Assembly (NCBI GenBank): GCA_902511405.1
Contig: CABXEZ010000002.1
Coordinates: forward strand, 22,304-86,303
DNA: 64,000 bases
DNA from: an uncultured Alphaproteobacteria bacterium
GTDB taxonomy: Bacteria; Pseudomonadota; Alphaproteobacteria; HIMB59; GCA-002718135
Reading direction: 5' to 3'
Positions 26,565 to 48,892 of this stretch are shown one piece after another; positions within the stretch are counted from its first letter, which is position 1, and the number at the start of each line of letters is the position of its first letter. The notes beneath the pieces are model-generated. The model worked only from the letters and a program-made list of their open reading frames with translations, was not told where the DNA came from and did no database searches. Both the position numbers and the translations under genes were made by a program.

Positions 26565-26641
26565 TGGCGCGCCCGAGAAGAGTCGAACTCCTAACCTCCA
26601 GATCCGTAGTCTGGCGCTCTATCCAATTGAGCTACGGGCGC
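26565..26641 (-). tRNA. tRNA-Arg (anticodon ACG), CCA encoded
   Basis: The reverse complement GCGCCCGTAGCTCAATTGGATAGAGCGCCAGACTACGGATCTGGAGGTTAGGAGTTCGACTCTTCTCGGGCGCGCCA folds by hand into a 77-nt cloverleaf. It has a 7-bp acceptor stem, anticodon loop CUACGGA and a TTCGA T-loop. Confidence 0.93.
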
Positions 26642-28024: not shown

Positions 28025-31000
28025 ATGAAACTAATTTTTAAAATATTATCACTAATCATTTCTATTGGAATTCTTTTATCAGGAAATGCAGCTTTTGCTG
28101 CTAAAGAAAACCCCTTACTCTTAGCAATGAAAATTGAATGTAGTGGAAATAATGCTGGTAGGAGTTCATGGAGTGATAATTTTTTTGGTTTTACAACTGA
28201 TCATACTTTTCATGGAAGTAGATGGTGGTATGAATCTGGGGATAGACTAGGGGAAATCGGACAACATACCTTTAATGGGTCAAGAACAAAAAAATCTCTT
28301 CTTATAGAAGGAGAAGGAAGATGGTTAGAAGATAATAGAAAAAAACCATGGAAACTTCAATTCATATCCAAAGGGGATAAGCCCATGTTAAAACATTTAG
28401 AAGATGGTGTTGGCGGATATGAGGGTTCTGGGCAAGATAAAAGAGATTGCACGATAACACTACTTAATAAAGTAAAAGCAAATGAAGCTATTCGGTTAGA
28501 TTCCTACACTAGAGTTATTTCAGGACTAAAAAATCGAATAGATAATTTAAATAAAAGAGAAAAAGATAAAGAAAACAATCAAGCAAATACCAATCAAGAC
28601 AGAGAAATTATATTGTTAAAAAATCGAATAGATAATTTAAAGTATGAATTGAAGAAACAGGATTCAAATACCAACCAAGATGTTGATGTAAGTCAATTAC
28701 AAAAAAATGAAGAAGAAATTCAAAACCTTACCAAGAAATATGAAAAAGAAATTACATTGTTAAAAAATGAAATTACCTCTCTTAAGGATGAAAACAAAAT
28801 TAGTGGTAAAAAAATTAAAGAATTAAATGATGAAGTAATTGCAACTAAAAACAATACTGAGTTTGAACTTAAATATGAAAAAATATTAAAACAAATTGAT
28901 GATGTTAAAATAAAATTAGAAAGTTCTAAGTCAGATAATACAAGTTTAGAAAAACAGTTATCATCTTTAAAAGACTCAGAAATTTCTCTAAATACCTCTT
29001 TAGATAATCAAAGCAAAGAAATTGTATCTCTAGAAAATTTAAATTTAGAATTAAAAAAAGAAATAGAAATATATAAGCAAAAAGAAGAAGAATTAATTCA
29101 AATCATAGAAACAACTGAAAATCAAAAATTACAAGAACAGCAACTTGCTGAGGAGAAAAGACAAGCTGAAGAAAGAAAAATTGAAGAAGAAAGAATAGCA
29201 AATGAAAAAAAATTAAAAGAACAACAAGAAGCAGAAAGATTAGCTCAAGAAGAAATTAATAAAAAATTATCTATACTTACACAGGAAACAGATTTAGAAA
29301 AAGCACAAAACTTTTTAACTAATCTTGAGAGCTTTGTTAAACAATATCCAAATGAATTTGATATCATCACAATATCGGAATATTTCATTGCCACTAGATC
29401 AATACTGGATGGAAATTTGAATTTTACCAATGAGACAAAATTAAAAGAATTTAGAGATTATGTAAGTGAAACGAGTGAACTTTATCTAAAATATAACAAA
29501 GAGATTTTTCAAAAAAATCAGACTGAAAGATTAAATACAATAAATCAAGCCATCTTGGGATTAGAAACAAGTATTAATGAGTTGAAATTAATAATGGTCA
29601 ATAATACGCAATCAGTCAATTTACAAAAATGGACAGATGCAATTAAAATTGCGGAAATTACTTTAAAAGAACTGAATGGTTATGATGAGCTCATAAATGC
29701 TAGCAAAAACATTAATGATCTTATTAAATTAAAGGCAGAAGTAGATGGGGCTATTGTTTTTTTAAATGAAACCAAAGATGAATTAAAAATTTATTTACAA
29801 GAAAATTTAACTACTGATTTAGCGCCATTAATTTTAGATCAAATTAAAATAATAGATGAATCCATTAAAAATGAAGATATTAGAGAAATTACAGATACGA
29901 CTGAAAAATCTAAAGAATTCATTTTAAAAAAAATTATTGAACCAAAAAAACTAAAAAAAGCTGAAGAGATTGAAAATGAAAGAAAAAAACTAGCTGAAGA
30001 ACAAAATAAGGAGTTTGAGGAAATATTTAATAAATACAACGCAAAAAATGATTATCAAAAGCAAATCGTAAAACTACTTTACTTTCTAGAAGTGCCATTT
30101 GAAAATATAGCTTTTTCTAACATGGACAACGTGATTTCAATTTCTGGAATTGGGGATGAGTCTATAAAATTAGATGAATTAAAAATTACTAAAATAAATA
30201 AAAAATACTTAAATGAGTGGTTTCAACTAAATGAAAAATATAAATTATTTTCAGATGTATCAAATTCAAATTTTGAAATACCAGAACTTAAGTATTTAGG
30301 AAAAATTGCTGATGATATTAAATTTAGTGGTTTAAACATTTACGATTTAATGGGTTATGCTGAGCTAAGGATAGAAGAGGTAGGAATAAAAAATCTTGAT
30401 TTTGAAAATTTTGGTAAAATTAAAAATATCTTAAGTACAAGTATAGGTAGAGGAGAAGAACATGAGGTTTTAAGTCTCATTTTAAGTGCTAAATTTGATA
30501 AAATTTATTTTAAAAATTCTACATTATCAGAGCCGGAGCCAGCCTCACTTAAATATTTTGAAATTACTAATTGGAATGAATTCTCATTTAAAAAAATTGA
30601 ATTTAAAGATTACAAGTTACAAGAAGAGTTCAATGAATTTCATTTAGAAAATTTTAAAATAAGTAACTTTGCTTTAGATAATAATTTTACCTACGACCTG
30701 CTTGGTTCTCCAGAATCTCAAGAATTGCTTTTAAATGGAGATTACTCAGAAATATTCAATTCATTTGTATCATTGGATAATCTAGAGATTAAAAACTTTT
30801 CAGCAAAAATAAATAATGAAGATGTATTTATTTTAGATAGTGCAAAAATTAATAATATAAAATTTGATTACTTTGGCGCTAACAACAATATCAAGGTTCC
30901 AACTAGTTTTAATTTTGAGATTAAAGGAGCTGATTTTAATTATAATCAAGTGCGTGAAATAAGTGGAGGATTAGCGCCCTTAGATGGTTTAATTGATGAA

Positions 31001-31531
31001 TTAGGATATGAAAAAATTAAGTTTGATTTCAAAACAGGCTGGAAATGGAACACTGAAGCTAATGATATTCTGTTTAATTTAGATTTAGGTATAACTGATG
31101 CTGCATCATTAGCTATTTCAACTAAATTAATAGATCTAGATACAAATATCCTAACATTGCAAGGAGCGCCATTACTGACATACCTTATGACAGAGCCAAA
31201 ATTAAAAAAGCTTAATATATCTTTAGTAGATAGTTCTTTTAGAGATAAATTCATAAATTATGCAGCAAAAGAACAAGGAATGACAGCTGAGCAACTTAAA
31301 GATTTTGTAATTCAATCAATGGATATTTATTCTAATACATTTGGAATTGATCAGAGTCTGGTAAAACAGTTTATAGACGCTACCTCAAACTTTATTAATG
31401 GAAGTAATAAGATTGTTTTATCTATTAAACCTTCAGAACCTGTCTCTATTAATAGCTTAACACCTGATGTGATGGGTCAAAATTATGAAGGATTAGTTGA
31501 TAAACTAAATGTTCATATTAGTAACTTTTAA
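28025..31531 (+). CDS. large secreted coiled-coil protein (hypothetical)
   Basis: 1168 aa. Signal peptide ...LLSGNAAFA, then a globular Trp/Gly-rich N-domain. Next comes about 270 aa of heptad-like E/K/L/N-rich sequence with a repeated LKNRIDNL unit, then a ~500-aa C-terminal region with repeated ...NF/IKNF... segments. Confidence 0.6.
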   Translation: MKLIFKILSLIISIGILLSGNAAFAAKENPLLLAMKIECSGNNAGRSSWSDNFFGFTTDHTFHGSRWWYESGDRLGEIGQHTFNGSRTKKSLLIEGEGRWLEDNRKKPWKLQFISKGDKPMLKHLEDGVGGYEGSGQDKRDCTITLLNKVKANEAIRLDSYTRVISGLKNRIDNLNKREKDKENNQANTNQDREIILLKNRIDNLKYELKKQDSNTNQDVDVSQLQKNEEEIQNLTKKYEKEITLLKNEITSLKDENKISGKKIKELNDEVIATKNNTEFELKYEKILKQIDDVKIKLESSKSDNTSLEKQLSSLKDSEISLNTSLDNQSKEIVSLENLNLELKKEIEIYKQKEEELIQIIETTENQKLQEQQLAEEKRQAEERKIEEERIANEKKLKEQQEAERLAQEEINKKLSILTQETDLEKAQNFLTNLESFVKQYPNEFDIITISEYFIATRSILDGNLNFTNETKLKEFRDYVSETSELYLKYNKEIFQKNQTERLNTINQAILGLETSINELKLIMVNNTQSVNLQKWTDAIKIAEITLKELNGYDELINASKNINDLIKLKAEVDGAIVFLNETKDELKIYLQENLTTDLAPLILDQIKIIDESIKNEDIREITDTTEKSKEFILKKIIEPKKLKKAEEIENERKKLAEEQNKEFEEIFNKYNAKNDYQKQIVKLLYFLEVPFENIAFSNMDNVISISGIGDESIKLDELKITKINKKYLNEWFQLNEKYKLFSDVSNSNFEIPELKYLGKIADDIKFSGLNIYDLMGYAELRIEEVGIKNLDFENFGKIKNILSTSIGRGEEHEVLSLILSAKFDKIYFKNSTLSEPEPASLKYFEITNWNEFSFKKIEFKDYKLQEEFNEFHLENFKISNFALDNNFTYDLLGSPESQELLLNGDYSEIFNSFVSLDNLEIKNFSAKINNEDVFILDSAKINNIKFDYFGANNNIKVPTSFNFEIKGADFNYNQVREISGGLAPLDGLIDELGYEKIKFDFKTGWKWNTEANDILFNLDLGITDAASLAISTKLIDLDTNILTLQGAPLLTYLMTEPKLKKLNISLVDSSFRDKFINYAAKEQGMTAEQLKDFVIQSMDIYSNTFGIDQSLVKQFIDATSNFINGSNKIVLSIKPSEPVSINSLTPDVMGQNYEGLVDKLNVHISNF

Positions 31532-31689: not shown

Positions 31690-32238
31690 ATGAAAATAAT
31701 ACCTTTAATTTTATTTTTCTTAATTAGTTTCAATTTGTTCGCAAAAACTGGATCAGTTACAGGACTTGAAATACCTAGGTTTGTTTCTCTTAAATCAAAT
31801 GAAGTTAACTTGCGAGTGGGACCGAGTACAAACTACCCTATTGAACTCACATATGTGACTAAGAACTTACCAATAGAAATAATTGATGAATTTGATGCAT
31901 GGAGAAAAATAAAAGATCATAAAGGAATAAAAGGTTGGTTACATAAAAGCTTAATTCAAGGAGATAGATTTGTTCTTACAGGTTATAAAAATAACAATGA
32001 TATTGATCTTTACAACAGACCTAATGGAAGTATCATAGGAGCAATCAAAAAAAATAATATTTTAGATCTTAAAAACTGTATTTTGTATTGGTGCAAAGTA
32101 AGTCATCAGAACACTAATGGTTGGGTGCTTAAAAAAAATATTTGGGGCATTTATGAGTTTGAAATTTACAATGATAAATTTTATCAACCTGCATTAAACA
32201 TATATTGGAGAATATTGAATAGTAAATTGTTTAATTAA
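31690..32238 (+). CDS. SH3b-domain (DUF1058-like) periplasmic protein
   Basis: 182 aa. Signal peptide, then ...VNLRVGPSTNYPIELTYVTKNLPIEIIDEFDAWRKIKDHKGIKGWLHKSLI... is a bacterial SH3-like repeat, followed by a second copy (...WCKVSHQNTNGWVLKKNIW). Confidence 0.7.
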   Translation: MKIIPLILFFLISFNLFAKTGSVTGLEIPRFVSLKSNEVNLRVGPSTNYPIELTYVTKNLPIEIIDEFDAWRKIKDHKGIKGWLHKSLIQGDRFVLTGYKNNNDIDLYNRPNGSIIGAIKKNNILDLKNCILYWCKVSHQNTNGWVLKKNIWGIYEFEIYNDKFYQPALNIYWRILNSKLFN

Positions 32239-32240
32239 AA

Positions 32241-32293
32241 TGGCTGGGGCGGCAGGATTCGAACCTGCGAATGTCGACTCCAAAAACCGATGC
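32241..32293 (-). repeat. perfect 53-nt direct repeat of the tRNA-Gln 3' end (distal att site / pseudo-tRNA)
   Basis: Identical to 33930-33982. Beyond nt 53 only weak tRNA-like similarity remains (AGTACCAAAATGGCCATGCCCAA versus CTTACCGCTTGGCGACGCCCCAA) and no acceptor stem can form. Confidence 0.93.
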
Positions 32294-32591
32294 AGTACCA
32301 AAATGGCCATGCCCAATGGCGGAATACTTAGGTTTATTTTTCTACAAATTTAAAAAATGAGTGTGTGAGTGTGGCCATAGTGTGACCATTATTTTTTTCA
32401 TTTTATTATCCTAGCACCAACCAAGGAGATTGTTAAGTGTGGCGTATGCATGACCATTGTGGACATGTCCATAGTTCACCATTTTTATAAATTATATATA
32501 TTTTACGAATGTTTTTTTACCCCCCCATGTTTCACTGTGGCATCCTCTCCGTCCTCCTTGCGTGTCACAGTGAATCACTTGTATAGTCATA

Positions 32592-33929: not shown

Positions 33930-34004
33930 TGGCTGGGGCGGCAGGATTCGAACCTGCGAATGTCGACTCCAAAAACCGATGCCTTACCGCTTGGCGACGC
34001 CCCA
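33930..34004 (-). tRNA. tRNA-Gln (anticodon UUG), CCA encoded
   Basis: The reverse complement TGGGGCGTCGCCAAGCGGTAAGGCATCGGTTTTTGGAGTCGACATTCGCAGGTTCGAATCCTGCCGCCCCAGCCA is very close to E. coli tRNA-Gln. Shared parts are UGGGG..UCGCCAAGCGGUAAGGCA, anticodon loop UUUUGGA and GGUUCGAAUCC. Confidence 0.9.
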
Positions 34005-34127: not shown

Positions 34128-35117
34128 ATGATTGAAGAAAGTAAATTTGGATTTAGGGATAAAAGAGGACATTTTGTTCCAAAAGAAGCTGCTGATAAAA
34201 ATCCATTATGGGTTTTGCCAATTAATCTAAAAAAAATAATAAATTGGTTTATTTTTTCTTATATTTTTTCTTGGAACCTTTTTTATCTCTTCATTGCATT
34301 TATAGCCTATTATTTTTTTACCCCACCAATGTCAGAAATGAAAATATTATCTGTTGGTTGGATTTCAGAAATACTTCTTAGAAACTATGTAATGGGAACA
34401 ATTTTTTTTAGTCTCATTCATATTCCTCTTTATATTAGTAAATCTCAAGGAATTAAATTTAAGTTTAATCCAAACTGGCCTGAAAAAATTCAAAAATTAT
34501 TTACTTTTAATAAACAAATTTTTGATAATTTGTTTTGGAGTTTATTTTGGGGTGTTCCAATTTGGACGGCTTATGAAGTAATATCATTATGGCTTTATGC
34601 ATCTGGAAGAATACCTTTTATTGAATTCGGTGAGTCACCAGTTTATTTCTTTTTAATACTTTTATTAATTCCAGCATTTAGAGATGCACACTTTTATTTA
34701 GTACATCGTTTTTTACATTTTAAATTTATGTATAAAATTGCTCACTCCGTTCATCATAGAAATATAAATCCTGGTCCATGGTCGAGTCTTTCCATGCATC
34801 CTGTCGAACATCTACTATATTTCTCTGGAGTCATAATTCATTGGATTATACTTTCTCATCCACTTCATGCCATTTACCATTTGTTTCATGCGGGACTTGG
34901 TTCAGCTAATGGCCATATTGGTTTTAAGCAAATGCTTTTAAATGATAAACATGCGATTGATCTCAGCAATTATAATCATTATCTTCACCACAAATATTTT
35001 GAAGTAAATTATGGAAACTTGATGATTCCCTTCGATCAGTGGTTTGGAACCTACCATGATGGTTCAGACGAGCTTCATCGAAAAATGCTGGAAAGATTTA
35101 AAAAAACTTCAAACTAA
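34128..35117 (+). CDS. fatty acid hydroxylase / sterol desaturase superfamily membrane protein
   Basis: 329 aa. TM segments plus histidine boxes HRFLH, HSVHH and HHKYF. Confidence 0.75.
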   Translation: MIEESKFGFRDKRGHFVPKEAADKNPLWVLPINLKKIINWFIFSYIFSWNLFYLFIAFIAYYFFTPPMSEMKILSVGWISEILLRNYVMGTIFFSLIHIPLYISKSQGIKFKFNPNWPEKIQKLFTFNKQIFDNLFWSLFWGVPIWTAYEVISLWLYASGRIPFIEFGESPVYFFLILLLIPAFRDAHFYLVHRFLHFKFMYKIAHSVHHRNINPGPWSSLSMHPVEHLLYFSGVIIHWIILSHPLHAIYHLFHAGLGSANGHIGFKQMLLNDKHAIDLSNYNHYLHHKYFEVNYGNLMIPFDQWFGTYHDGSDELHRKMLERFKKTSN

Positions 35118-35267
35118 TAATAATGTAACTTTTTTTACATATAAAAGATGAAATTAAATATAGAAAATCAATAAAAACTCCATTTTAGTTGTTATGTTTT
35201 CAATATAGGCTTGTCTCTATGACTAGTTTATGTTTATAGTAATTTACTTAAATTAACTGGAGGAAAT

Positions 35268-36878
35268 ATGAAAAAACTTATTGCGGTTATTTCTTTAGTT
35301 TTAGCTCAACTGTTATTTGTATCAACAGTATCAGCTCAAGCTACTAATAGTAACCAATTATCAGACCCAAGAGTTAGACAAGCGCTTTGTATGGCAATTG
35401 ATATGGAGCTTATCAAATCAACATTATTTGAAGATCAAATAATTGTTGCAGATAGTCTTCTGCCAAATGGCCCTATGAAGTCTCCTAACTTACCTGATTA
35501 CAGCTACAACCCAGAAAAAGCTAAGGCTCTTTTAGCTGAAGCTAATTGGGATAATGATCGTGTTTTAGATACGGTTTTCTATTATGGAGATCAACTTACT
35601 TCGGATCTTATGGCTGCAATCCAAGGAATGTTTGCTGACGTTGGCGTAAAAATGACTTACCGACTTCTTCAAGGAGATGTTGGTGCACAATTAAATTCAG
35701 TTCCTGAAGATGGAGTGAATGGACCTGCTGCCGTAGATTACGATCTAGGTTATGGTGCAAGAGGTGCAATGGTTATGCAAGAGTATTATAATACTTTTAA
35801 AACTGGCCTAAACCCTCAAACTCCTGGCAATCCAAAAATGGATGCTATGATTGAAAAAATTAATTCAAGTGCTGATCCTGAAGTTTTAAAGCCTTACTTC
35901 TTTGAAATTCAAGAGTATCAAATGAATGAAGTAAACATTTGTCCATTATACTATCAAAAATTATTTATTTATGAGAGTGACAATGTTGACAGAAACGGTG
36001 GTGCTTACGGTAACGCTCAGTACAATTACAATTGGGATATAACTAATTGGAAAGTTAATACTGGCACTATGCAAACAAATACTGGACCAACTGAATTCTT
36101 TGAACAACCTTGGTATAACTTAGGTTTATGGATTCATAATAAAATTGTATTCGACAGATTACTTGTATCTGGTGGAGCAATCGGAACAGATATTGGTGTT
36201 TCAATGGCAGAAAGCTATGAAATGTCAGCTGATGGCCTAAACTTAAGTTTCAAACTTAAACCAGGTCTAAAATGGCATGATGGTACTGACTTAACTGTTA
36301 AGGATGTTGCATTCAGTCTTAGACTTGCAATGAAGTCACCTCAAATGCATGCACTTGTTGGAAATACTGTTTCATCAATTGTAGGAGCTGAAGCTTTTGC
36401 TAACGGTTCTACTGATGATGTATCTGGTATTAAATACAATATTGCTAATAGAGAAATTTCAATAGAATTTGCAAAACTTGATCCAAATGTATTAACTACA
36501 TTTACTCAGTTTGCTATTCTTCCTGAAAGTCAATTAGCAGGTATTGATCCAGCACAACTACAACAGCATCCATTCTGGCAGTTCCCGATTGGATCTGGTG
36601 CATTTAAACTTGAAGAAGTTAAAATGAATGATTTTGCAAAATTTGTTCCTAATGAAGATTATCATGGTGGAGTTGCAAACTTTGACGTTCTAGCTTACCC
36701 AAGTTATGATGGAGATGGAAACTTAATCAAAAATGCTGCGGCAGGTAAAATGGATTATGGTTTTACTAAAAACGTAGCTGACGTTGGCGCGCTTAATGCA
36801 ATGTCAAATATGATGACTAAGGCTGTTGATATACCTTACACTCGTATGCTTTGGATTATGCAATATCCAAAACCATAA
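35268..36878 (+). CDS. ABC transporter substrate-binding protein, family 5 (Dpp/Opp/Nik type), apparently circularly permuted
   Basis: 536 aa with a signal peptide. D-PRVRQAL...YSYNPEKAKALLAEA, normally at about residue 300, follows the signal peptide directly. ...MAESYEMSADGLNLSFKLKPGLKWHDGTDLTVKDVAFS... and ...PIGSGAFKLEE..., normally N-terminal, lie at residues 310-450. Confidence 0.8.
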   Translation: MKKLIAVISLVLAQLLFVSTVSAQATNSNQLSDPRVRQALCMAIDMELIKSTLFEDQIIVADSLLPNGPMKSPNLPDYSYNPEKAKALLAEANWDNDRVLDTVFYYGDQLTSDLMAAIQGMFADVGVKMTYRLLQGDVGAQLNSVPEDGVNGPAAVDYDLGYGARGAMVMQEYYNTFKTGLNPQTPGNPKMDAMIEKINSSADPEVLKPYFFEIQEYQMNEVNICPLYYQKLFIYESDNVDRNGGAYGNAQYNYNWDITNWKVNTGTMQTNTGPTEFFEQPWYNLGLWIHNKIVFDRLLVSGGAIGTDIGVSMAESYEMSADGLNLSFKLKPGLKWHDGTDLTVKDVAFSLRLAMKSPQMHALVGNTVSSIVGAEAFANGSTDDVSGIKYNIANREISIEFAKLDPNVLTTFTQFAILPESQLAGIDPAQLQQHPFWQFPIGSGAFKLEEVKMNDFAKFVPNEDYHGGVANFDVLAYPSYDGDGNLIKNAAAGKMDYGFTKNVADVGALNAMSNMMTKAVDIPYTRMLWIMQYPKP

Positions 36879-36949: not shown

Positions 36950-37915
36950 GTGGCAACGTATTTTATTCAACGATTAATCATTTTTATTCCTATGATTTTC
37001 GTGATTAGTTTCTTAGTATATTTTGGACTCGACTTAACACCAGGGGATGCTGTTTCTCATATGATCAGTCCTGAACTCGCCGCAACTATCACACCCGAAA
37101 AATTAGAAGCGATGAGAGAAGCTTATGGATTAAACGCCACTTTTTTAGAGAGATATTGGATATGGCTTACTAGCTGCTTAAAAGGTGACTTTGGTTATTC
37201 TATGGCAGGCGGCGTAGCGATAAAAGATATTATGGTTAAAACAATCCCTGCTACTCTAGAGCTTTCTATTGTAGCATTAATTATTTCTACCATCTTAGGA
37301 TGTTCTTTAGGTATTTTAAGTGCCTTAAAAAAAGGATCTGCTACAGATAGTGGACTTACTGTTGCTGGTATGGCTGGCGTATCCATACCTGAATTTTTCT
37401 TTGCTTTAGTAGCTATATTAATATTTGGGATGCACTTTCAATGGTTACCAGTTGGAGGTAGACTGCTCCCTCACTATGAAACTTTACTTGATCGAATTCC
37501 AAATATTATCATGCCGTCTATGGTTTTAGCTTTAGCTTTAACAGCAGGCGCAATGCGCTATTCTCGGTCATCAATGCTTGATGTACTGTCTCGTGAATTC
37601 ATTAAAACAGCTCGATCAAAAGGATTACCGGAATGGAGAATCAATATCTTACATGGATTTAGAGTCGCCCTTACTCCTGTTGTAGTTTTAATAGGTTTCA
37701 GATTACCTTTATTAATAGGTGGTTCAACTATCATAGAACAAGTATTTCAATGGCCTGGAATTGGTAATATGTTCATAAGATCTGTTCGGGCCTCAGATTA
37801 TCCTTTGGTAATGATGATATCACTGATGTACGTTTTTGTTGTTTTAACAGCAAGTTTACTAATAGATTTGTTAACCGCTTTAATTGATCCTCGAGTTAGA
37901 TTAGGAAAAGAATAA
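36950..37915 (+). CDS. ABC transporter permease (DppB/OppB type)
   Basis: 321 aa, GTG start. N-terminal MATYFIQRLIIFIPMIF... and ...FIKTARSKGLPEWRINILHGFRVAL... are typical of DppB-type permeases. Confidence 0.88.
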   Translation: MATYFIQRLIIFIPMIFVISFLVYFGLDLTPGDAVSHMISPELAATITPEKLEAMREAYGLNATFLERYWIWLTSCLKGDFGYSMAGGVAIKDIMVKTIPATLELSIVALIISTILGCSLGILSALKKGSATDSGLTVAGMAGVSIPEFFFALVAILIFGMHFQWLPVGGRLLPHYETLLDRIPNIIMPSMVLALALTAGAMRYSRSSMLDVLSREFIKTARSKGLPEWRINILHGFRVALTPVVVLIGFRLPLLIGGSTIIEQVFQWPGIGNMFIRSVRASDYPLVMMISLMYVFVVLTASLLIDLLTALIDPRVRLGKE

Positions 37916-37916
37916 A

Positions 37917-38831
37917 ATGAAAAAAACTTCATTAGATAAAAAATTTGATAAATTAAGATTTCTTGAAGAAAATAATAAATTGGTTTCTAAAGATCAAAAT
38001 AGATTAATTAGTAAGTTCCTAAATAATAAATTAGCTGTCTTAGGTTTAATAATATTTTCTATAATAATACTTGCAACTATTTTTGCGCCCCTACTGACCT
38101 CCTATGATCCAATAAGGACTGATTTAAGATCAATGAGACAATCTCCTTCTCTAGACCACTGGTTTGGAACTGATAATACTGGAAGAGATGTTTTTTCAAG
38201 AGTATTGTACGGTGGTAGAGTCTCTATATTTGTTGGTTTGGGAAGTTCGCTAATGGCTGCATTGATAGGATTAGCAATAGGATGTTATGGAGGTTACAAA
38301 GGTGGATGGGTTGATGTAATCGCATTAAGAATATCTGAAATTTTTATGTCTTTTCCTCAAATTATTTTAGTTTTATTATTAGTTTCCATTACTGGTCAAA
38401 GTTTAACAAACTTATTTGTAATATTTATTTTAACTGGCTGGGGAGGTATGTACCGACTATCTCGAGCCAGAATGTTGTCTTTAAGAGAAGAAGAATATGT
38501 TCAAGCCTTAGAGAGTTTTGGCATTTCTACTTTTACGATTTGTTATAAACATATGTTACCAAACGCTCTTGGGCCAATAATGGTAATGATAACATTATCA
38601 ACAGCAATGTTTATTTTAACTGAAGCAGGTTTAAGCTTTTTAGGCTTAGGAGTGCCTCTTAATGTTCCTACTTGGGGTAATATTTTAAATGTCGCAACAG
38701 ATATTGTTGTGCTTCAAAATTATTGGTGGATGTGGGCGCCAGTTGGAATTGTTATTTCGGTATTTGTATTAGCTGTTAATTTTATAGGAGATGGTCTGAG
38801 AGATTCTACTGATCCATCACAACAAGGTTAA
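37917..38831 (+). CDS. ABC transporter permease (DppC/OppC type)
   Basis: 304 aa. ...HWFGTDNTGRDVFSRVLYGGRVS... is the hallmark DppC/OppC N-terminal motif. Confidence 0.88.
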   Translation: MKKTSLDKKFDKLRFLEENNKLVSKDQNRLISKFLNNKLAVLGLIIFSIIILATIFAPLLTSYDPIRTDLRSMRQSPSLDHWFGTDNTGRDVFSRVLYGGRVSIFVGLGSSLMAALIGLAIGCYGGYKGGWVDVIALRISEIFMSFPQIILVLLLVSITGQSLTNLFVIFILTGWGGMYRLSRARMLSLREEEYVQALESFGISTFTICYKHMLPNALGPIMVMITLSTAMFILTEAGLSFLGLGVPLNVPTWGNILNVATDIVVLQNYWWMWAPVGIVISVFVLAVNFIGDGLRDSTDPSQQG

Positions 38832-38832
38832 G

Positions 38833-39840
38833 ATGAGACACAATAAAAATATTGCTCTTTCAGTTAAAGATCTAAAGACATATTTCTATACTAATAACAG
38901 ATGCAATAAAGCAGTTAATGGGGTGTCGTTTGATATAGAAAAAGGCAAAACATTATGTGTCGTTGGTGAAAGTGGTTGTGGTAAAAGTGTAACTGCCTCA
39001 ACAATAATGCAACTCCTTCCTACTCTTTCTCGAATAGAAGAAGGGGAGATTATTTTTCACAAAGACAATGAAAAAATTAATATCGAGAAACTTGAACGTA
39101 ACGGAAAAGAAATGAGAGAAATTCGTGGTTCTGATATTGCAATGATTTTTCAAGACCCTATGACAGCACTTAACCCTGTCTATACTGTTGGTTTTCAAAT
39201 TGCTGAAAATTTAAAATATCACACCACATTGAGTAAAAAGGAAATACGAGAAAAAACAATTAGACTTTTAGATGATATGGGTATTCCGCTTCCTGAACAA
39301 AGAGTTGATGAATATCCACATAGTTATTCGGGAGGTATGCGTCAACGAGCAATGATTGCAATGGCAATGGCCTGTAATCCAAAAATATTAATAGCTGATG
39401 AACCTACAACAGCACTTGATGTTACTATTCAAGCTCAGATTTTTGAACTAATGGATAATCTCAAAAAAAATTACAACACTGCAATAATGCTTATTACTCA
39501 TGACATGGGTGTTGTTGCAGAATTAGCAGATAATGTTGCTGTTATGTATATGGGAAATATTGTTGAGTCGGGTACTGCTGATGATGTTCTGCGAAGACCT
39601 ACCCACCCTTATACAAAAGCATTACTCGATTCAGTTCCCGTTCTTGGCAGAGGAAGAGATCAAGATATCAAACCAATAAAAGGATCTACACCTGACCCAT
39701 ATGATAGACCTATTGGGTGTCAGTTTGCGCCAAGATGTAATTGGAGAACGGAGAGCTGTGATATAATGCCAGAAATTTCTAATATCAGTGAAACTCATGA
39801 AATTAGATGCCATAAATATAAGGAGATTTTTCAGTATTGA
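38833..39840 (+). CDS. ABC transporter ATP-binding protein (DppD/OppD type)
   Basis: Walker A GESGCGKS, signature YSGGMRQR, Walker B LIADEPTTALD and an oligopeptide-type C-terminal extension with Cys residues. Confidence 0.9.
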   Translation: MRHNKNIALSVKDLKTYFYTNNRCNKAVNGVSFDIEKGKTLCVVGESGCGKSVTASTIMQLLPTLSRIEEGEIIFHKDNEKINIEKLERNGKEMREIRGSDIAMIFQDPMTALNPVYTVGFQIAENLKYHTTLSKKEIREKTIRLLDDMGIPLPEQRVDEYPHSYSGGMRQRAMIAMAMACNPKILIADEPTTALDVTIQAQIFELMDNLKKNYNTAIMLITHDMGVVAELADNVAVMYMGNIVESGTADDVLRRPTHPYTKALLDSVPVLGRGRDQDIKPIKGSTPDPYDRPIGCQFAPRCNWRTESCDIMPEISNISETHEIRCHKYKEIFQY

Positions 39841-40853
39841 GTATCAATAAAGACATAGCGCTTACACTAAAAGGTGTAGAGGTTCACTTTCCTGTTAAAG
39901 CAGGGGTTTTCAAGCGCACTGTTGCTCATGTAAAGGCAGTAGATGGTGTAGACATTGATATCTACCGGGGCGAGGTGTTAGGATTAGCTGGTGAGAGTGG
40001 TTGTGGTAAAACTACTTTAGGTAAAGCCATCTTAAGATTAGTGGAGCCAACAGCAGGGAGTGTTACTTATAATTCAACTGAAAATAATACTACTGAACTT
40101 ACTTCTTTATCAAAAAAAGAGATGGATCCGTTTAGAAAAAAATTACAAATTGTTTTTCAAGACCCACACTCATCATTAAATCCTTCTTTCACCATTTTTG
40201 GATCCTTAGAAGAGCCTCTTAAAAAATATGGTGTAAGTAAAAGAAGTGAAAGAAGAAAAATTATTGGCGATTTATTAGAGGCAGTAAATATGCGTCCTGA
40301 ATATATGGATCGCTACCCACATGAATTTTCTGGAGGTCAACGACAAAGAATTGGTATTGCCAGAGCATTATGTATTGATCCTGAAATTATTGTTTGTGAT
40401 GAAGCGGTAAGTGCACTTGATGTTTCTATTCAAGCACAAGTATTGCAACTTTTAATGAAATTACGAAAAGAGAGAAATTTAACATATTTATTTATTACGC
40501 ATGACTTAAGTGTAACAGAATATTTATGTGATAGAATCGCGGTAATGTACTTGGGGAGAATTGTTGAGCTCTGCAAGTCAGAAGATTTATATAAAAACAC
40601 CCTTCACCCCTATTCGGAAGCTCTTATTTCAGCAATACCGGTGGCAGATCTAGATAAAAAAACGAAGAGAATTGTTTTAGAAGGCGATGTCCCTAGTCCT
40701 GTTAACCCACCCTCAGGCTGTCCTTTTCATCCGCGTTGTCCTAAAGCGCAAGATATATGTAAAACTAAGGTTCCTGAATTAAAAAAATATACCACAGACG
40801 GAAATGAGCATTATGCATCATGTCACTTAATTAATTTACCAGAAATATCATAA
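39837..40853 (+). CDS. ABC transporter ATP-binding protein (DppF/OppF type)
   Basis: TTG start overlapping the upstream stop. Walker A GESGCGKT, signature FSGGQRQR, Walker B IVCDEAVSALD and a C-terminal ...PSGCPFHPRCP... motif. Confidence 0.9.
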   Translation: MSINKDIALTLKGVEVHFPVKAGVFKRTVAHVKAVDGVDIDIYRGEVLGLAGESGCGKTTLGKAILRLVEPTAGSVTYNSTENNTTELTSLSKKEMDPFRKKLQIVFQDPHSSLNPSFTIFGSLEEPLKKYGVSKRSERRKIIGDLLEAVNMRPEYMDRYPHEFSGGQRQRIGIARALCIDPEIIVCDEAVSALDVSIQAQVLQLLMKLRKERNLTYLFITHDLSVTEYLCDRIAVMYLGRIVELCKSEDLYKNTLHPYSEALISAIPVADLDKKTKRIVLEGDVPSPVNPPSGCPFHPRCPKAQDICKTKVPELKKYTTDGNEHYASCHLINLPEIS

Positions 40854-41783
40854 ATGAAAAAATTTTTAGCTGAAGATTTGAATGGTGTTATGCCTGCAAT
40901 GATTACATCTTTTAATAAAGATGAAAATATAAACAAAGAAGGAATTAGAAAAACCGTAAACTATTTAGTCTCTCAAAATGTTCATGGTCTCTACATTACA
41001 GGTAGCACAGGTGAGACTTTTTTAATGTCACCAGGTGAAAAGAAGGAAGTCATCGATATTATTGTTGAAGAAGTTAATGGCAGAGTGCCGGTCATTGCGC
41101 ATATTGGATCTATTGGCACTAAGATTACAATTGAGCTTGGTCAGCATGCAGAAAAAAGTGGTGTTAATGCTTTATCAGCCCTACCCCCTTTCTATTATGG
41201 TTTCTCCAATAATGAAATTTATAATTATTATAATGATATTTCAAACTCATCAAATTTACCGATAATAGTTTATAATATCAGCCAAGCAAACTTAATGGAT
41301 TTAGATACGTTAAAAAAATTAGCATCTATTAAGAATATAAAAGGTGTAAAGTATACAGCACCGACACACTTTAATTTTAGTAAAATTAAAAAAGAAATAA
41401 GTAATGACTTTAAAATCTACTCAGGAATGGATGAGATGGCTTTATCAGGAATTATTTCAGGAGCAGATGGAATGATAGGATCATTTTATAATCTAATGCC
41501 AGAAATGTTCGTTAGCCTTTTTAATCAATTACAAAAGGGGGATATTAATGAAGCAAAAAAAATCCAGGAAAAAATCAATATTATCATCGTATATGCTTTA
41601 GAAAAATCAGGGTATCCTTTTATCAAAATGGGCATGAACTGGTTAGGCATTGACTCTGGTTATGTTAGAAGACCTTTTGTAAGTATTACCGATACAGACG
41701 TAGAGAATGAAATAAAAAAAGATTTGAAGATATTAAGTAAAGAAAATGATTTATCGGGTATTAAATTTTTAGAGGGATTATAA
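40854..41783 (+). CDS. DHDPS/N-acetylneuraminate lyase family class I aldolase (NanA-like)
   Basis: ...GLYITGSTGE..., ...PFYYGFS..., ...IVYNIS..., the Schiff-base lysine context KGVKYT, and ...YSGMDEMALSGIISGADGMIGSFYNLM...GDINEAKKIQ.... It aligns along its whole length with E. coli NanA as I recall that sequence. Confidence 0.75.
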   Translation: MKKFLAEDLNGVMPAMITSFNKDENINKEGIRKTVNYLVSQNVHGLYITGSTGETFLMSPGEKKEVIDIIVEEVNGRVPVIAHIGSIGTKITIELGQHAEKSGVNALSALPPFYYGFSNNEIYNYYNDISNSSNLPIIVYNISQANLMDLDTLKKLASIKNIKGVKYTAPTHFNFSKIKKEISNDFKIYSGMDEMALSGIISGADGMIGSFYNLMPEMFVSLFNQLQKGDINEAKKIQEKINIIIVYALEKSGYPFIKMGMNWLGIDSGYVRRPFVSITDTDVENEIKKDLKILSKENDLSGIKFLEGL

Positions 41784-41785
41784 TA

Positions 41786-43087
41786 ATGAGTAAGGGTCAA
41801 AAATTATATTCTAAAGCCAAAAAAATTGTTGCTGGTGGAAATATGCTCCTATCCAAAAGACCTGAAATGTTCTTACCTGAACATTGGCCTTCATATTTTT
41901 CTAAAACGAAGGGTTGTGAAGTTTGGGACCTAGACGGAAATAAATATATTGATACCCTAATGATGCCTGGAACAAATTCTCTTGGATACAATAATGCTGA
42001 AATTGATGAGGCTGTAATAGAAACTATTAGTAATGGGAACATGTCTACTTTAAATGCTCCTGAAGAAGTAGAGCTGACAGAAAAACTTGTCGAGTTGCAC
42101 CCTTGGGCAGATATGGCGCGGTTTGCAAGATCAGGGGGCGAAGCAAATTCAGTAGCCATCCGATTAGCAAGAGCTGCATCTGGTAAAGATAATGTTGCTT
42201 TTTGTGGTTATCACGGTTGGCATGATTGGTATTTGGCATCAAATTTATCTGATTCTAAAGGGCTTGATGGTCATTTACTTCCAGGATTGGACCCTCATGG
42301 CGTACCTCAAAATTTAAAAGACAGTGTTCATCCATTTGAATATAATAATTTTGCGAAACTTGAAGAGCTTGTTAAAACAAAAAATATCGGTGTAATTAAA
42401 ATGGAGGTCTTTCGTAACAAAGAGCCTGAAAATAATTTTTTACAACAGGTAAGAAAATTAGCTGATGATAATAACATTGTATTGGTGTTTGATGAATGTA
42501 CTTCTGGTTTCAGAAAAAATTTTGGGGGACTGCATAAACTGTATGGGGTCGAACCTGATGTAGCTATGTTTGGTAAAGCTCTTGGAAACGGATATGCTGT
42601 TACTGCTGTGTTAGGAAAAAGAGATGTCATGAAAGCTGCAGAAAAATCTTTTATTAGCAGTACCTTTTGGACAGAGAGAATTGGATCAAGTGCTGCTCTT
42701 GCTACATTAAAAGTGATGGATAAAGAAAAATCTTGGGAAAAAATAACGACTATGGGTGAAAAAATAAATAAAGAATGGATATCTTTGTCTCAAGAATTTG
42801 AGCTACCTATATCAATAAGTGGTTTAGCTGCACTCACTACTTTTAGTTTTAAAAGTAAGAATGCCCTCGCGTACAAAACTTTAATTACTCAAGAAATGCT
42901 TAAAAAAGGTTATCTTGCTGCAACAGCAGTTTATGTTTGTACTGAACACACGCCATCAATTATAAATGAGTATCTAGAGAATTTAAAACCTATCTTTCAA
43001 ACAATCAAAGAATGTGAAGAAGGACGTGATGTAATGGATTTGTTAGAAGGTCCTATTGCACACAATGGCTTTAAAAGACTTAATTAA
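41786..43087 (+). CDS. class III PLP aminotransferase (glutamate-1-semialdehyde aminomutase-like)
   Basis: 433 aa. ...ARFARSGGEANSVAIRLAR..., ...VFDECTSGFR... and the PLP lysine in ...AMFGKALGNGYAV.... Confidence 0.8.
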   Translation: MSKGQKLYSKAKKIVAGGNMLLSKRPEMFLPEHWPSYFSKTKGCEVWDLDGNKYIDTLMMPGTNSLGYNNAEIDEAVIETISNGNMSTLNAPEEVELTEKLVELHPWADMARFARSGGEANSVAIRLARAASGKDNVAFCGYHGWHDWYLASNLSDSKGLDGHLLPGLDPHGVPQNLKDSVHPFEYNNFAKLEELVKTKNIGVIKMEVFRNKEPENNFLQQVRKLADDNNIVLVFDECTSGFRKNFGGLHKLYGVEPDVAMFGKALGNGYAVTAVLGKRDVMKAAEKSFISSTFWTERIGSSAALATLKVMDKEKSWEKITTMGEKINKEWISLSQEFELPISISGLAALTTFSFKSKNALAYKTLITQEMLKKGYLAATAVYVCTEHTPSIINEYLENLKPIFQTIKECEEGRDVMDLLEGPIAHNGFKRLN

Positions 43088-44571
43088 TCTATAGCAATAA
43101 TCTTAGCACCAATTTTTTTGAAAGGTAGTCTATTAAGATTACTCGTGCACAATCCCTGGCTATCAATGTAAAAACTATGCGATGCAATAGAATCATAAGC
43201 ATCCTTATGCGATACAGCGGCTTTGATAATTATTAACTTAGCATCTTCTGGATTAATATCTTGTGAAATTAATTGCCCTAAATCCATTGGTGGTGTTTTA
43301 ATTGATGTTAATAAAAGTGTTAATTTTTCATTTTTAATAACAGCTGATAACCCCATATTTATATTCATGCCCATCATCGATGCTAAGTGTGACTGTTTAT
43401 TTTTCAATTTAAATTTACCATCAGATAGTTTTTTAATCTTGGCTTTTAATAAAATCGGAGATCCATGATATTCATCAAATTTAGCTCCAATATTGAGTTC
43501 TATTTCATCTCCCACATTATTTTGATGACACTCTCTCACAGCATCAGGATCATTAATGATTGCAACTATTCCATCATGATCAGTTTGTAATAACCGACTT
43601 AATAAATCTGTAGCATCTCCAGGAGTGCCTCCACCAATATTGTCAGATGGCTCTATAAGTAAGATGGGTTTTGATAAAGGAGGTAGAGATTGAATTTTTA
43701 CTAACGCTTCCTCTAAAGTGTTTTCTTTGGGGTAAGCAAAATTTATTTTTGACTCAAGAATAGTGGCAAGAGATGCTAAATACTTCTTAGCAGCTTTTAC
43801 ATCTCCTTTAGTACAGCAATTTAAACTAAATCCACAATCTGCAATGTCAGCATAAGAATAACCAGCCATTACATTGATGCATAAAATATTAGTATCATTT
43901 TGCTCTATTTTTTTAGCTTCTTGTAAAATAGACTTCATAGGATCATTTGCCGTCCCAACACCTGTAGGGGGTAAAATATATTTAGTTTGATAGTTAACTT
44001 GGTTTACATTTGGAGTTTCAAATAAATCATCAAGAATTGAAGTAGCCTTAATCGCTGCTTCTCTTGAGTCACTGTGTGGATTTTTTCTATATGCATAAAC
44101 GCACGTAGTATTTTCAATCATTTTATCAGAAACATTTGCATGAAGATCTAAAACAGCAACTATCGGGATAATTATTTTTTTTTGTTTTAAAAAATAATTA
44201 ATTTTTTCTAAAAAATCGCCTTCAAAATCATCATGATTTTTACTAACCATTGCTCCATGAAGAATTAAAAATATTGCATCTATATTTTTGCAGTGTTGAT
44301 CTAATTTTTCGAAAAATGTTGTATCAAAGTATTGTTCAGCTTCATGATCCACTGTTCCAGATGGTCTTGCGGACATTTGAATGCCTGGAATTATTTTCCA
44401 ATTCTTCTTAGAGGCAAATTCAATGAAGCCATCAGTTGGTGATCCATTGCCGGTATTTTCTTTGATAATATCATCACCAATATTAATTATAAAGTCATTC
44501 AAAGTTGTTGGTTGACTTAAAAATGTATGTGTTTCGTGATATATTCCTGATAAAAAAATATTTTTAGTCAT
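43084..44571 (-). CDS. M81 family metallopeptidase (MlrC/microcystinase C-like)
   Basis: 495 aa. N-terminal ...FLSGIYHETHTF... and ...LILHGAMV... / ...DLHANVS... motifs are characteristic of the MlrC N-domain, with the MlrC C-domain following. Confidence 0.72.
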   Translation of the reverse strand: MTKNIFLSGIYHETHTFLSQPTTLNDFIINIGDDIIKENTGNGSPTDGFIEFASKKNWKIIPGIQMSARPSGTVDHEAEQYFDTTFFEKLDQHCKNIDAIFLILHGAMVSKNHDDFEGDFLEKINYFLKQKKIIIPIVAVLDLHANVSDKMIENTTCVYAYRKNPHSDSREAAIKATSILDDLFETPNVNQVNYQTKYILPPTGVGTANDPMKSILQEAKKIEQNDTNILCINVMAGYSYADIADCGFSLNCCTKGDVKAAKKYLASLATILESKINFAYPKENTLEEALVKIQSLPPLSKPILLIEPSDNIGGGTPGDATDLLSRLLQTDHDGIVAIINDPDAVRECHQNNVGDEIELNIGAKFDEYHGSPILLKAKIKKLSDGKFKLKNKQSHLASMMGMNINMGLSAVIKNEKLTLLLTSIKTPPMDLGQLISQDINPEDAKLIIIKAAVSHKDAYDSIASHSFYIDSQGLCTSNLNRLPFKKIGAKIIAID

Positions 44572-45481
44572 TCATTAACTCTGGCAATTCTTTTTTAGCA
44601 ATTATTCTTATTTTTTTTACCTCATCTAATGTTGCTCCTTCATAAGGCCATAAAACTTTTTCAGAAACTGGGCCCCACCCTCCTACACAAGCAAGTAACT
44701 TATCCAAGCCCGTATTGGATAATCTAGTTGCAAGTGGAAGAATATGTGTTTTCATAAAATTCACAACTCTCATTTCAATTTGTTTGGCTTTTTCATAATC
44801 CTTATTAATTAAATCCCAAATCATTACTGCTCCATTTGGACTAAAGCAGGCAACATTTGAGTATGAGCCATTGGCGCCAAGTGGTTTACCAAAAACAACA
44901 CTATGTCCAGGGACAAAAACTGAAAAATTTTTTAATAAAGTCCTTCTATTCTTGTACCAATCCTCATCTCCTCCTGCACATTTTATTCCTATAAGATTTG
45001 GTGCTTTATCATTTAACTGTGAAATTTCTTCCAGACTAAGCAATACTTTTGCGTGCGGGGGATTGTATAAAATAAGATATATATCCTCCACCACTTCTTG
45101 TATTCCCATAATAAAATTTAAAGACTCTTGATAAGTAGGTGGCCACCAATCAGGAAGCGTAATTTGAAAACCATTAGGTTTTAGCGAGGTTAATCTTATT
45201 GCTCTCTCACGACAAATACGAGGATTTGTATGACTTAAACCTAATTGAAATTTTTTATTTTTTTTTAAAGCTATCGATGAAACTATATTTGATAATTTAT
45301 CAAACTCTTCTTCAGTTTGATTATGACATTCTGCTGCTGTACCGTTGGTATAGACGCCATGCACATCAGAGTCACATAAAATATTGACCTGCTCTTCAAA
45401 AGCAACCCAATCAATTTTACCATTTTTTACTGGTAATAAAATTGCTCCCCAAATTCCCTCAGGTCTTTGTAAAATACTCAT
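44564..45481 (-). CDS. DHDPS-family class I aldolase/lyase
   Basis: 305 aa. ...GVYTNGTAAECHNQTEEEF... stands in the GTTGE position and ...LIGIKCAGGD... is the lysine context. A divergent member. Confidence 0.6.
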   Translation of the reverse strand: MSILQRPEGIWGAILLPVKNGKIDWVAFEEQVNILCDSDVHGVYTNGTAAECHNQTEEEFDKLSNIVSSIALKKNKKFQLGLSHTNPRICRERAIRLTSLKPNGFQITLPDWWPPTYQESLNFIMGIQEVVEDIYLILYNPPHAKVLLSLEEISQLNDKAPNLIGIKCAGGDEDWYKNRRTLLKNFSVFVPGHSVVFGKPLGANGSYSNVACFSPNGAVMIWDLINKDYEKAKQIEMRVVNFMKTHILPLATRLSNTGLDKLLACVGGWGPVSEKVLWPYEGATLDEVKKIRIIAKKELPELMND

Positions 45482-45485
45482 TGAG

Positions 45486-46406: not shown

Positions 46407-46409
46407 AAA

Positions 46410-47947: not shown

Positions 47948-48034
47948 ATATTTACCTTGATTTAAGTTATTATGTTTATATGATAACTAAATAAATTTAT
48001 AAATCTAGCTAAAAATTAATGTAGTATAAATTTT

Positions 48035-48889: not shown

Positions 48890-48892
48890 TAA

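Follow-up and report, generated by a model that had tools for sequence, protein, structure and literature searches.

The window analyzed here, a stretch of 64,000 nucleotides from an uncultured alphaproteobacterium, carries at the head of an ATP-binding cassette (ABC) transporter operon a gene for a 536-residue protein. This is very probably a genuine and functional periplasmic binding protein of the Dpp/Opp/Nik type (family 5, cluster C) with a circularly permuted chain, as indicated by its sequence matches and a structural model. A natural circular permutation was proposed in the initial annotation of this gene, and is borne out by matches to Pfam and Protein Data Bank (PDB) entries, which fall in swapped order along the protein and become collinear when the chain is un-permuted in silico. 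Few bacterial proteins have been studied as thoroughly as the family-5 binding proteins, for which hundreds of structures exist, and the same chain order is seen in all those compared.

Swapped order of the profile and PDB matches

The Pfam profile SBP_bac_5 (PF00496) matches the protein in two separate stretches (173 bits, cutoff 32.4, E 1.3e-50), the stronger of which aligns protein residues 313-510 with profile positions 6-186 of 368, placing the N-terminal part of the profile in the C-terminal half of the protein; two partial matches in swapped order had been predicted from the sequence beforehand. PF00496 is the only Pfam family matched, with no match to the cluster B family (Peripla_BP). 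The NCBIfam models of family 5 (Opp4A, NikA, GsiB, DppA, SapA and others) also match in swapped order, and all of them remain far under their cutoffs, indicating that a dedicated model for this protein does not exist. In phmmer searches against PDB sequences all good matches are to family-5 binding proteins, again in two stretches with the order swapped: residues 286-477 align with 35-220 of 8upi_A (independent E-value 5.6e-15) and 31-134 with 283-385 of the same chain, while in AapF (7kz8) residues 284-352 align with 36-101 and 30-236 with 266-468, and in DppA (1dpp) residues 28-99 align with 273-345.

In a reciprocal test, an un-permuted sequence (residues 265-536 followed by 24-264) gave one collinear stretch per chain, with 49-513 aligned to 56-497 of 8efz (a chain of 497), 21-485 to 37-468 of AapF and 48-481 to 61-470 of 5isu. 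Self-comparison of the two halves of the protein showed no similarity, which rules out an internal duplication. The boundaries first assigned to the halves (31-264 and ~270-536) prove correct to a few residues, the C-terminal-type half covering ~28-264 and the N-terminal-type half 265-536, and the swap is far too strong to be accidental.

Position of the cut and mapping of both hinges

The protein was mapped onto the MppA reference sequence of E. coli K-12 with published domain limits (PMC6022919), in which domain 1a comprises residues 23-65, 197-285 and 509-540; these limits agree with the earlier supposition that the native termini lie in the same lobe. All published limits (1a, 1b, 2 and both hinge segments) find counterpart residues. 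The cut lies between MppA residues 301 and 302, in the loop that joins the first strand to the first helix of lobe 2. As this is ~14 residues beyond hinge 1 and inside lobe 2, the chain should still cross both hinges, with its termini moved from lobe 1 to lobe 2. A cut at hinge 1 itself, giving contiguous lobes with a single covalent crossover, is ruled out by the same alignment.

From this mapping, the chain would run from a Sec signal peptide through most of lobe 2, beginning with the 'LSDPRVRQA' helix, to a hinge at ~237-238, then through the ancestral C-terminal segment of lobe 1 ('NWKVN') and a TGT linker to the ancestral mature N-terminus and all of lobe 1 including 1b, and finally through a hinge at 519-520 into the first β-strand of lobe 2, at which the protein ends. 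The domain order is 2 (minus its first strand)-1a-1a-1b-1a-(first strand of 2), as against the canonical 1a-1b-1a-2-1a, and lobe 2 is composed of residues 28-231 and 521-536. Residues 26-231 match canonical chain residues ~270-470, and their opening helix canonically lies at ~residue 300. Within lobe 1, the first segment of domain 1a corresponds to ~265-294, the extra domain 1b to 295-433 and the second segment of 1a to 434-518. The signal peptide ends in …VSAQA|TN, with a putative cleavage site; this leader is disordered in the AlphaFold2 model (predicted local distance difference test, pLDDT, <50 for residues 1-21), and the region is variable among family members in alignment A1.

The connection is best read against canonical-order relatives at 41-42% identity, P0124 (from a Lachnospiraceae metagenome-assembled genome, MAG) and P0125. 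The mature N-terminus of the window protein reads '…NSNQLSDPRVRQALCMAID' and its C-terminus '…IPYTRMLWIMQYPKP*', and across precisely these ends P0124 reads '…VNYTRWFMVNQYPK-AAGET-NPLSDKRVRQAIAYAID…'; the canonical sisters run on from the cut site into 'NPLSDxRVRQA'. As had been suggested, the chain breaks off at the point at which a normal one enters D..VRQAL, and P0124 reads through that point. Conversely, P0124 begins 'GEKILYSNTGPVEFFEVPWWNLG' and ends 'WDIQNWTLK*', and both pieces are fused in the window protein as 'WDITNWKVN-TGT-MQTNTGPTEFFEQPWYNLG', which agrees with the earlier reading of the junction as a C-terminus-like end joined to a mature-N-terminus-like start. The segment before the junction ('…NWDITNWKVN') has the same end point as '…WDIQNWTLK*' in P0124 and '…WHIQDWVIG*' in P0125, so that 'NWKVN-TGT-MQTNTGP' (within the peptide …NWKVNTGTMQTNTGPTEFF…) represents a canonical C-terminus followed by a canonical N-terminus. 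In the permuted proteins the ancestral termini are fused by a linker of 3-8 residues. The window protein belongs to a permuted family termed group A; in its other members the linker is 8 residues long ('EPDExGKK' type). A SAR11 clade within it (the window protein, P0003, P0004 and P0007) displays a 5-residue linker deletion, with 'TGT' or 'GG' in place of 'PDxxGKx' (A1, residues 262-268), indicating that the ancestral termini can be joined by very few residues.

Predicted structure

An AlphaFold2 model computed on an alignment of 33 sequences has a mean pLDDT of 88.3 and a predicted TM-score (pTM) of 0.85, with the junction residues 261-270 at pLDDT 93. Two long strands lie at the mapped hinge crossings: the second crossover falls within strand 224-237 (DSSP assignment) and the first within the long C-terminal strand 515-530. 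A sequential Foldseek search of 350,542 PDB chains recovered only family-5 proteins at probability 1.0, each over ~235-280 columns (TM 0.30-0.37), and none of these chains aligned end to end. As a control, the model of the canonical P0124 (pLDDT 88.2) aligned over 520-545 columns with the same chains (TMt 0.73-0.87; 529 columns and TMt 0.86 in the case of 5isu). The half-length matches of the window protein are therefore a signature of permutation, and the structure prediction proposed in the initial annotation yields a confident model of which a sequential search aligns half, where a 42%-identical canonical sister aligns fully. There are no solved structures with this topology. Given the sequence mapping, the confidence of the model and the half-length Foldseek matches, the protein should adopt the bilobed Venus-flytrap fold with both crossovers preserved.

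The permuted family and its phyletic spread

Of 5.8 billion proteins searched, 1,328 matched, and the best 120 of these were examined: one fragment apart, they are 527-572 residues long, cover 95-100% of the query and are 49-97% identical to it. A motif-order classifier found the permuted order in all 118 classifiable proteins among them. In the alignment of 33 members the mature N-termini all start with 'N-x-LSDxRVRQA' and the C-termini all close with 'DIPYTR…(F/Y)P', and about 130 positions are invariant. When one genome per species was scanned, 359 stretches matched, of which 310 encode a relative. The best 80 relatives are all essentially full length and include about 20 from SAR11 single-cell genomes or MAGs, others from cultured Devosia species, Oceanicola granulosus HTCC2516 and a closed Rhodobacteraceae chromosome (CP179201), and further ones from SAR324, Spirochaetes, KSB3/Vecturithrix, Marinimicrobia and gammaproteobacteria. 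The initial annotation had left it undecided whether the permutation was a lineage-specific event or marked an unrecognised subfamily; by these alignments, the permuted binding protein is a large, conserved, multi-phylum subfamily.

This distribution bears on two readings under which the gene would not be what it seems. The first, that two tandem binding-protein genes were collapsed or joined into a chimera during assembly, draws on the existence of such tandem genes in the clade and on the window being a single sequence. It has a negligible probability in view of the same order, termini and junction in all the classifiable homologs and in matches from the 310 species-genome stretches, drawn from separate projects, single-cell genomes and the closed chromosomes of isolates, and of proteins 96-97% identical to the window protein on other contigs (P0001, L001). 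Mis-assembly, raised at the outset as what would overturn the permutation, is excluded by these hundreds of independent genomes. The second reading takes the gene for a decaying remnant, either a non-functional fusion or a binding protein that has lost its role in transport (e.g. acting only as a chemoreceptor). This is very improbable given an intact frame, 49-97% conservation across phyla with the invariant positions noted above, a location that is always first in an intact transporter operon, a confidently predicted fold and an intercistronic hairpin kept in position (see below).

The window is itself 96% identical to a Pelagibacteraceae MAG and has a G+C content of 30.7%. A contig labelled as a 'Methanobacteriota archaeon' MAG (L019, NYXO01000056.1) contains the entire SAR11-type operon with 79-88% protein identity to the window, and is almost certainly a mis-binned bacterial contig.

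Canonical sisters and the number of permutation events

Further permuted proteins (P0121, P0122, P0123, P0127 and P0145) came from an exhaustive search with phmmer through 1.84 billion cluster representatives, which also recovered canonical-order relatives that are nearly as close, namely P0124 and P0125 as above and P0128 at 35% identity. A canonical family (C13) of Clostridia, found in Hungatella hathewayi, Roseburia, Anaerobium and Lachnospiraceae, has the canonical order in 103 of 103 classifiable members, while an equally large group B, found in Enterocloster bolteae, E. aldenensis, Lacrimispora, Caproiciproducens and Oribacterium, is permuted in 119 of 119; the E. bolteae member lies on a contig of 6.57 Mb. 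The permuted order is seen in the ocean's most abundant bacteria, SAR11, as well as in Clostridia common in the human gut.

The branching of these groups was studied in a neighbor-joining tree of 59 thinned binding proteins (492 columns, BLOSUM-based distances, 200 bootstraps); the first, thinly sampled trees of this kind left the inner branching unresolved and were not relied on. All permuted proteins together with C13 and P0128 form one clade in 200/200 replicates. Within it groups A and C13 join in 182/200, and in 169/200 when stretches of ±20 residues at the cut, the junction and the ends are left out; groups A and B join in 0/200, 1/200, 0/200 and 3/200 replicates over four column sets. 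Each half of the binding protein taken on its own yields the same groupings, ruling out a chimeric origin of the halves from different paralogs. The four co-transcribed transporter genes, which need no un-permuting, were concatenated (1,265 columns, 300 bootstraps) and support A with C13 in 297/300 and A with B in 0/300. From these trees the permuted order is probably polyphyletic, through either two gains or a gain and a reversion; the short internal branches and the use of distance methods only keep this at a good likelihood rather than a firm result.

A more far-reaching reading, at somewhat below even probability, is that circular permutation at the same lobe-2 loop occurred at least twice independently, once in group A (SAR11, Proteobacteria, Spirochaetes, KSB3 and others) and once in the gut-Clostridia group B, with canonical sisters persisting beside each. 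A quite plausible alternative, to which we give a lower probability, is that groups A and B descend from one permuted ancestor and that the trees separating them are artefacts of short branches and neighbor joining. In groups A and B alike the cut falls in the same loop, to within a few residues, the mean identities differ by only ~2 points (A-C13 43.4, A-B 41.7, B-C13 39.6), and the trees are distance-based throughout; in quartets of binding proteins with distant outgroups (A,B) receives 34% against 54% for (A,C13), and in permease B quartets rooted on E. coli (A,B) is favored with 62%. The bootstrap values given above run counter to such a single origin, as do the quartets with the close outgroup P0128, in which (A,C13) rises to 93% for the binding protein, and those of the transporter concatenate (87% and 100%). 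Furthermore, a compositional artefact would be expected to join the two clostridial groups B and C13, which is not observed, and the two permuted groups differ both in their linkers (8 residues of the 'EPDExGKK' type versus 5 residues, 'DNTDG/DREDK') and in their C-terminal tails (2-4 versus 6-16 residues).

It is also conceivable, if unlikely, that a single permutation was followed by a second one restoring the canonical order in C13. On the transporter topology (P0128,(B,(C13,A))) this takes two events, equal to two independent gains, and the old junction linker offers a loop in which a new cut could fall. However, the termini of C13 match those of all canonical outgroups, its cut-site loop ('NQYPK-AAGET-NPLSD') bears no remnant of a leader, and on the binding-protein topology ((P0128,B),(C13,A)) a reversion would take three events rather than two. 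Repeated permutation at one loop, if true, would point to this loop as a permutation hot-spot of the family-5 fold. Two permutations would also imply selection for carrying on lobe 2 the ends of the chain and, in lipoproteins, the attachment to the membrane, and the clade would supply natural matched pairs of permuted and canonical proteins.

Origin and mechanistic implications

The rearrangement might have arisen via tandem duplication, in-frame fusion and loss of both outer halves, with the original signal peptide retained. One locus from a Lachnospiraceae MAG (L099, 6081-9749) has two tandem canonical-order binding-protein paralogs of 595 and 582 residues, 132 bp apart on the same strand, before one permease set; this occurrence in the sister family makes the duplication route more plausible. 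The group-A linker ('…DEQGKK-IMRTN') also resembles the residues before the first strand in canonical sisters ('…AEGEK-ILYSN'). The only long proteins among the best 150 representatives examined for fused intermediates, P0223 (806 residues) and P0224 (668 residues), have repetitive N-terminal linkers and no second copy.

In function the protein would be an ordinary Venus-flytrap receptor for an OppBCDF-type translocator, binding a small ligand in its cleft and passing it to the downstream permeases, as in any family-5 protein. The ligand might be an acidic sugar or an amino-acid-derived compound that is cleaved by the adjoining NanA-like aldolase. During export, lobe 2 would emerge first and nearly complete. 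The strand that crosses hinge 1 would end as a free C-terminus 16 residues on, which could change the hinge dynamics, and in the lipoprotein members the tether would sit on lobe 2 in place of lobe 1. Three points weigh against parts of this picture: AlphaFold2 is possibly biased to the canonical fold; a fused double-length intermediate was not found among the best 150 representatives; and the SAR11 gene island described below has aminotransferases, PhyH dioxygenases and an MlrC-like peptidase in place of NanE and NanK, neither of which it contains, making the ligand proposal a weak one there. The permuted order itself is solidly supported and widespread.

Comparison with known binding proteins

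The protein resembles E. coli DppA, OppA, MppA and NikA, Listeria monocytogenes CtaP (5ISU) and Bacillus subtilis AppA (1XOC) in the PF00496 match, domains 1a, 1b and 2 and the hinges. It further shares with canonical family-5 proteins the associated OppB/C permeases and OppD/F ATPases with oligo_HPY domains, export by a signal peptide and presumably the Venus-flytrap mechanism. It differs from them in starting at ~MppA 302 and ending at ~301, with its termini on lobe 2. The closest natural parallel is TpMglB-2 (Tp0684) of Treponema pallidum, a permuted glucose-binding protein designated 'Type Ic / Cluster Bc' that retains ligand binding and closure (PMC4990184). Like the window protein, it is a natural permuted ABC binding protein that defines a family rather than being a one-off. 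However, TpMglB-2 is a cluster B sugar binder in which about three strands of the N-lobe moved and a fourth hinge crossover was created, and its permuted part has poor similarity to canonical sequence and an unclear origin. The rotation in the window protein, in contrast, involves the entire chain and amounts to about half of it; similarity to canonical sequence is clear from end to end, and the crossovers map to two sites, as many as in canonical family 5. By sequence comparison, the window protein is an analog of TpMglB-2 and not a member of 'Cluster Bc'. Many engineered permutants are also described in the literature searched; those of periplasmic binding proteins made as biosensors (e.g. 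PMC6335823) show that such folds tolerate new termini and fused old ones; these are laboratory constructs from other binding-protein classes, as opposed to natural, conserved and transporter-linked proteins.

No natural permutant of family 5 is described in the literature searched, the coverage of which is incomplete, and TpMglB-2 is the sole natural permuted ABC binder found there; the permuted family is provisionally regarded as undescribed. A systematic study of SAR11 binding proteins mentions no such protein (PMC11485210), and one paper recovered with 'permut' and SBP_bac_5 (PMC8461474) concerns a cyclically permuted mutarotase domain and not a binding protein. With two partial profile matches and half-length structure matches, members of this family are at risk of being misread as fragments or fusions.

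The canonical sisters (C13 and P0128) are 40-45% identical to the permuted proteins and belong to the one clade described above; their transporter genes are orthologous (clade in 300/300 bootstraps) and they too have a NanA-like aldolase as neighbor. They differ in having the canonical order, lipoprotein signal peptides and classic nan clusters (NanA, NanE, ROK/NanK, RpiR and YhcH). Such permuted and canonical pairs with orthologous transporters constitute a rare natural experiment on the effect of chain connectivity on folding, export, hinge dynamics and affinity; permutation repeated at one loop would be rarer still.

The operon, its neighborhood and the possible ligand

The open reading frame is intact, has a GGAGGA ribosome-binding site and heads a transporter operon, as had been noted at the start, with permeases of the OppB and OppC types and two OppD/F-type ATPases following (Table 1). 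The order binding protein, permease, permease, ATPase, ATPase is found in every locus long enough among 80 loci. Across related loci the transporter genes are better conserved (60-79% identity) than the binding protein (49-59%).

Between the binding-protein and first permease genes lies a stem-loop, and a hairpin with unrelated sequence occurs at the matching position in 10 related loci from several orders (L001-L041). A consensus terminator scan did not call it an intrinsic terminator, and no Rfam family was found near the binding-protein gene. Lacking a T-tract, the stem-loop is probably an mRNA stabiliser or a partial attenuator and not a full terminator, and by analogy with other such operons it probably sets the ratio of binding protein to permease.

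Table 1. Features of the binding-protein gene, its operon and the adjoining island (positions in the window)
Feature	Position	Strand	Basis and remarks
Binding-protein gene, very probably circularly permuted family 5 (cluster C)	35268..36878	+	536 aa plus stop; ATG start; open reading frame list
Shine-Dalgarno-like GGAGGA	35259..35264	+	3 nt upstream of ATG; read from sequence
Putative signal peptide, Sec/signal peptidase I type, residues 1-25 MKKLIAVISLVLAQLLFVSTVSAQA	35268..35342	+	n-region KK, hydrophobic core, AQA
Residues 26-231, bulk of lobe 2 (= MppA domain 2)	35343..35960	+	MppA 302-506 aligned to window protein 28-231
Residues 232-238, second hinge crossover	35961..35981	+	MppA hinge 507-508 aligned to window protein 237-238
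Residues 239-264, ancestral C-terminal lobe-1 segment (domain 1a, third segment)	35982..36059	+	MppA 509-537
Residues 265-267 'TGT', junction linker (ancestral C-terminus to ancestral mature N-terminus)	36060..36068	+	alignment A1
Residues 268-518, lobe 1 in ancestral N-terminal order, including 'MAESYEMSADGLNLSFKLKPGLKWHDG' and 'PIGSGAFKL'	36069..36821	+	canonical chain residues ~35-285
Residues 519-520, first hinge crossover (MppA 286-287)	36822..36827	+	alignment to MppA
Residues 521-536 'IPYTRMLWIMQYPKP', first lobe-2 β-strand, supplied by the C-terminus	36828..36875	+	MppA alignment; family-conserved C-terminus
Intercistronic stem-loop	36890..36925	+	12-bp G+C-rich stem, no T-tract; dG -20.6 kcal/mol, z -7.2
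Permease 1 (OppB/DppB type)	36950..37915	+	Pfam BPD_transp_1, BPD_transp_1_N; synteny
Permease 2 (OppC/DppC type)	37917..38831	+	Pfam OppC_N, BPD_transp_1; synteny
ATPase 1 (OppD/DppD type)	38833..39840	+	Pfam ABC_tran, oligo_HPY; synteny
ATPase 2 (OppF/DppF type)	39837..40853	+	Pfam ABC_tran, oligo_HPY; synteny
NanA-like DHDPS-family aldolase	40854..41783	+	Pfam DHDPS 254 bits; NF003164 278.2 bits vs cutoff 281
Class-III aminotransferase	41786-43087		catabolic island
M81/MlrC-like peptidase	43084-44571	minus	catabolic island
Second DHDPS-family gene	44564-45481	minus	catabolic island
Class-IV aminotransferase	45486-46406	minus	catabolic island
Two PhyH dioxygenases	46410-47947	minus	catabolic island
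Two tandem ketopantoate-hydroxymethyltransferase-like genes	48035-49753		catabolic island

The aldolase gene directly downstream of the transporter falls just under the cutoff of the NCBIfam model for N-acetylneuraminate lyase (NF003164) and is 29% identical to the NanA of Hungatella. It accompanies the transporter in most lineages, across phyla, and probably belongs to the pathway that the transporter serves. It is the first gene of a conserved catabolic island (40854-49753) around the transporter, many genes of which are again found next to the transporter, differently ordered, in Rhodobacterales, Hyphomicrobiales and SAR324. Judging by its gene content, the island may encode a pathway in which a compound is hydroxylated, transaminated and split by aldol cleavage.

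Further clues come from the clostridial loci. The P0124 locus contains DHDPS, NanE and ROK genes; that of P0125 contains RpiR, YhcH/DUF386, DHDPS, GlcNAc 2-epimerase, NagB and esterases; and that of P0372 (Hungatella hathewayi) contains NanA, NanE, ROK, a GDSL esterase and RpiR. Group B loci have GntR and DHDPS, or DHDPS and DUF386. Binding proteins of both C13 and group B adjoin nan-type genes in gut Clostridia (L098 of Hungatella hathewayi, L082, L086, and L097 of Enterocloster bolteae). The nanAKE locus of Hungatella has been validated experimentally for growth on sialic acid, the role of the adjacent ABC transporter being predicted only (PMC13228529). As a best guess, made with low confidence, the ligand could be an acidic sugar, or else a hydroxylated derivative of an amino acid, from which aldol cleavage releases pyruvate. 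For the SAR11 version, uptake of a related compound in the ocean is suggested.

A family-5 protein tied to sialic-acid catabolic genes is already known in SatA of Haemophilus ducreyi (ST3, PDB 5Z99). However, SatA has the canonical order, ranks only ~28th among matches to the canonical sister P0125 (E 1e-10), behind CtaP, DppA and peptide binders, and is not in the top 60 PDB matches of the window protein. Membership of the present clade in the SatA/ST3 family is ruled out by this sequence distance, by which the clade is a separate lineage. Being distinct from SatA/ST3 and adjoining nan genes, with a canonical sister beside a validated sialic-acid locus, the clade may represent a sialic-acid-type transporter family that is absent from the ST1-ST8 classification.

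Directly upstream of the binding-protein gene (34128-35117) lies a gene for a 329-residue membrane protein of the fatty-acid-hydroxylase family without an NCBIfam match, which is kept at that place (86-89% identity) only in loci of the SAR11 clade. Farther upstream, Rfam identified three tRNA genes on the minus strand (26568-26641, 32244-32316 and 33933-34004), the middle one scoring 30.9 against a threshold of 29 bits; among them lie a 1,168-residue open reading frame (28025-31531) and a gene for a bacterial SH3-domain protein (31690-32238).

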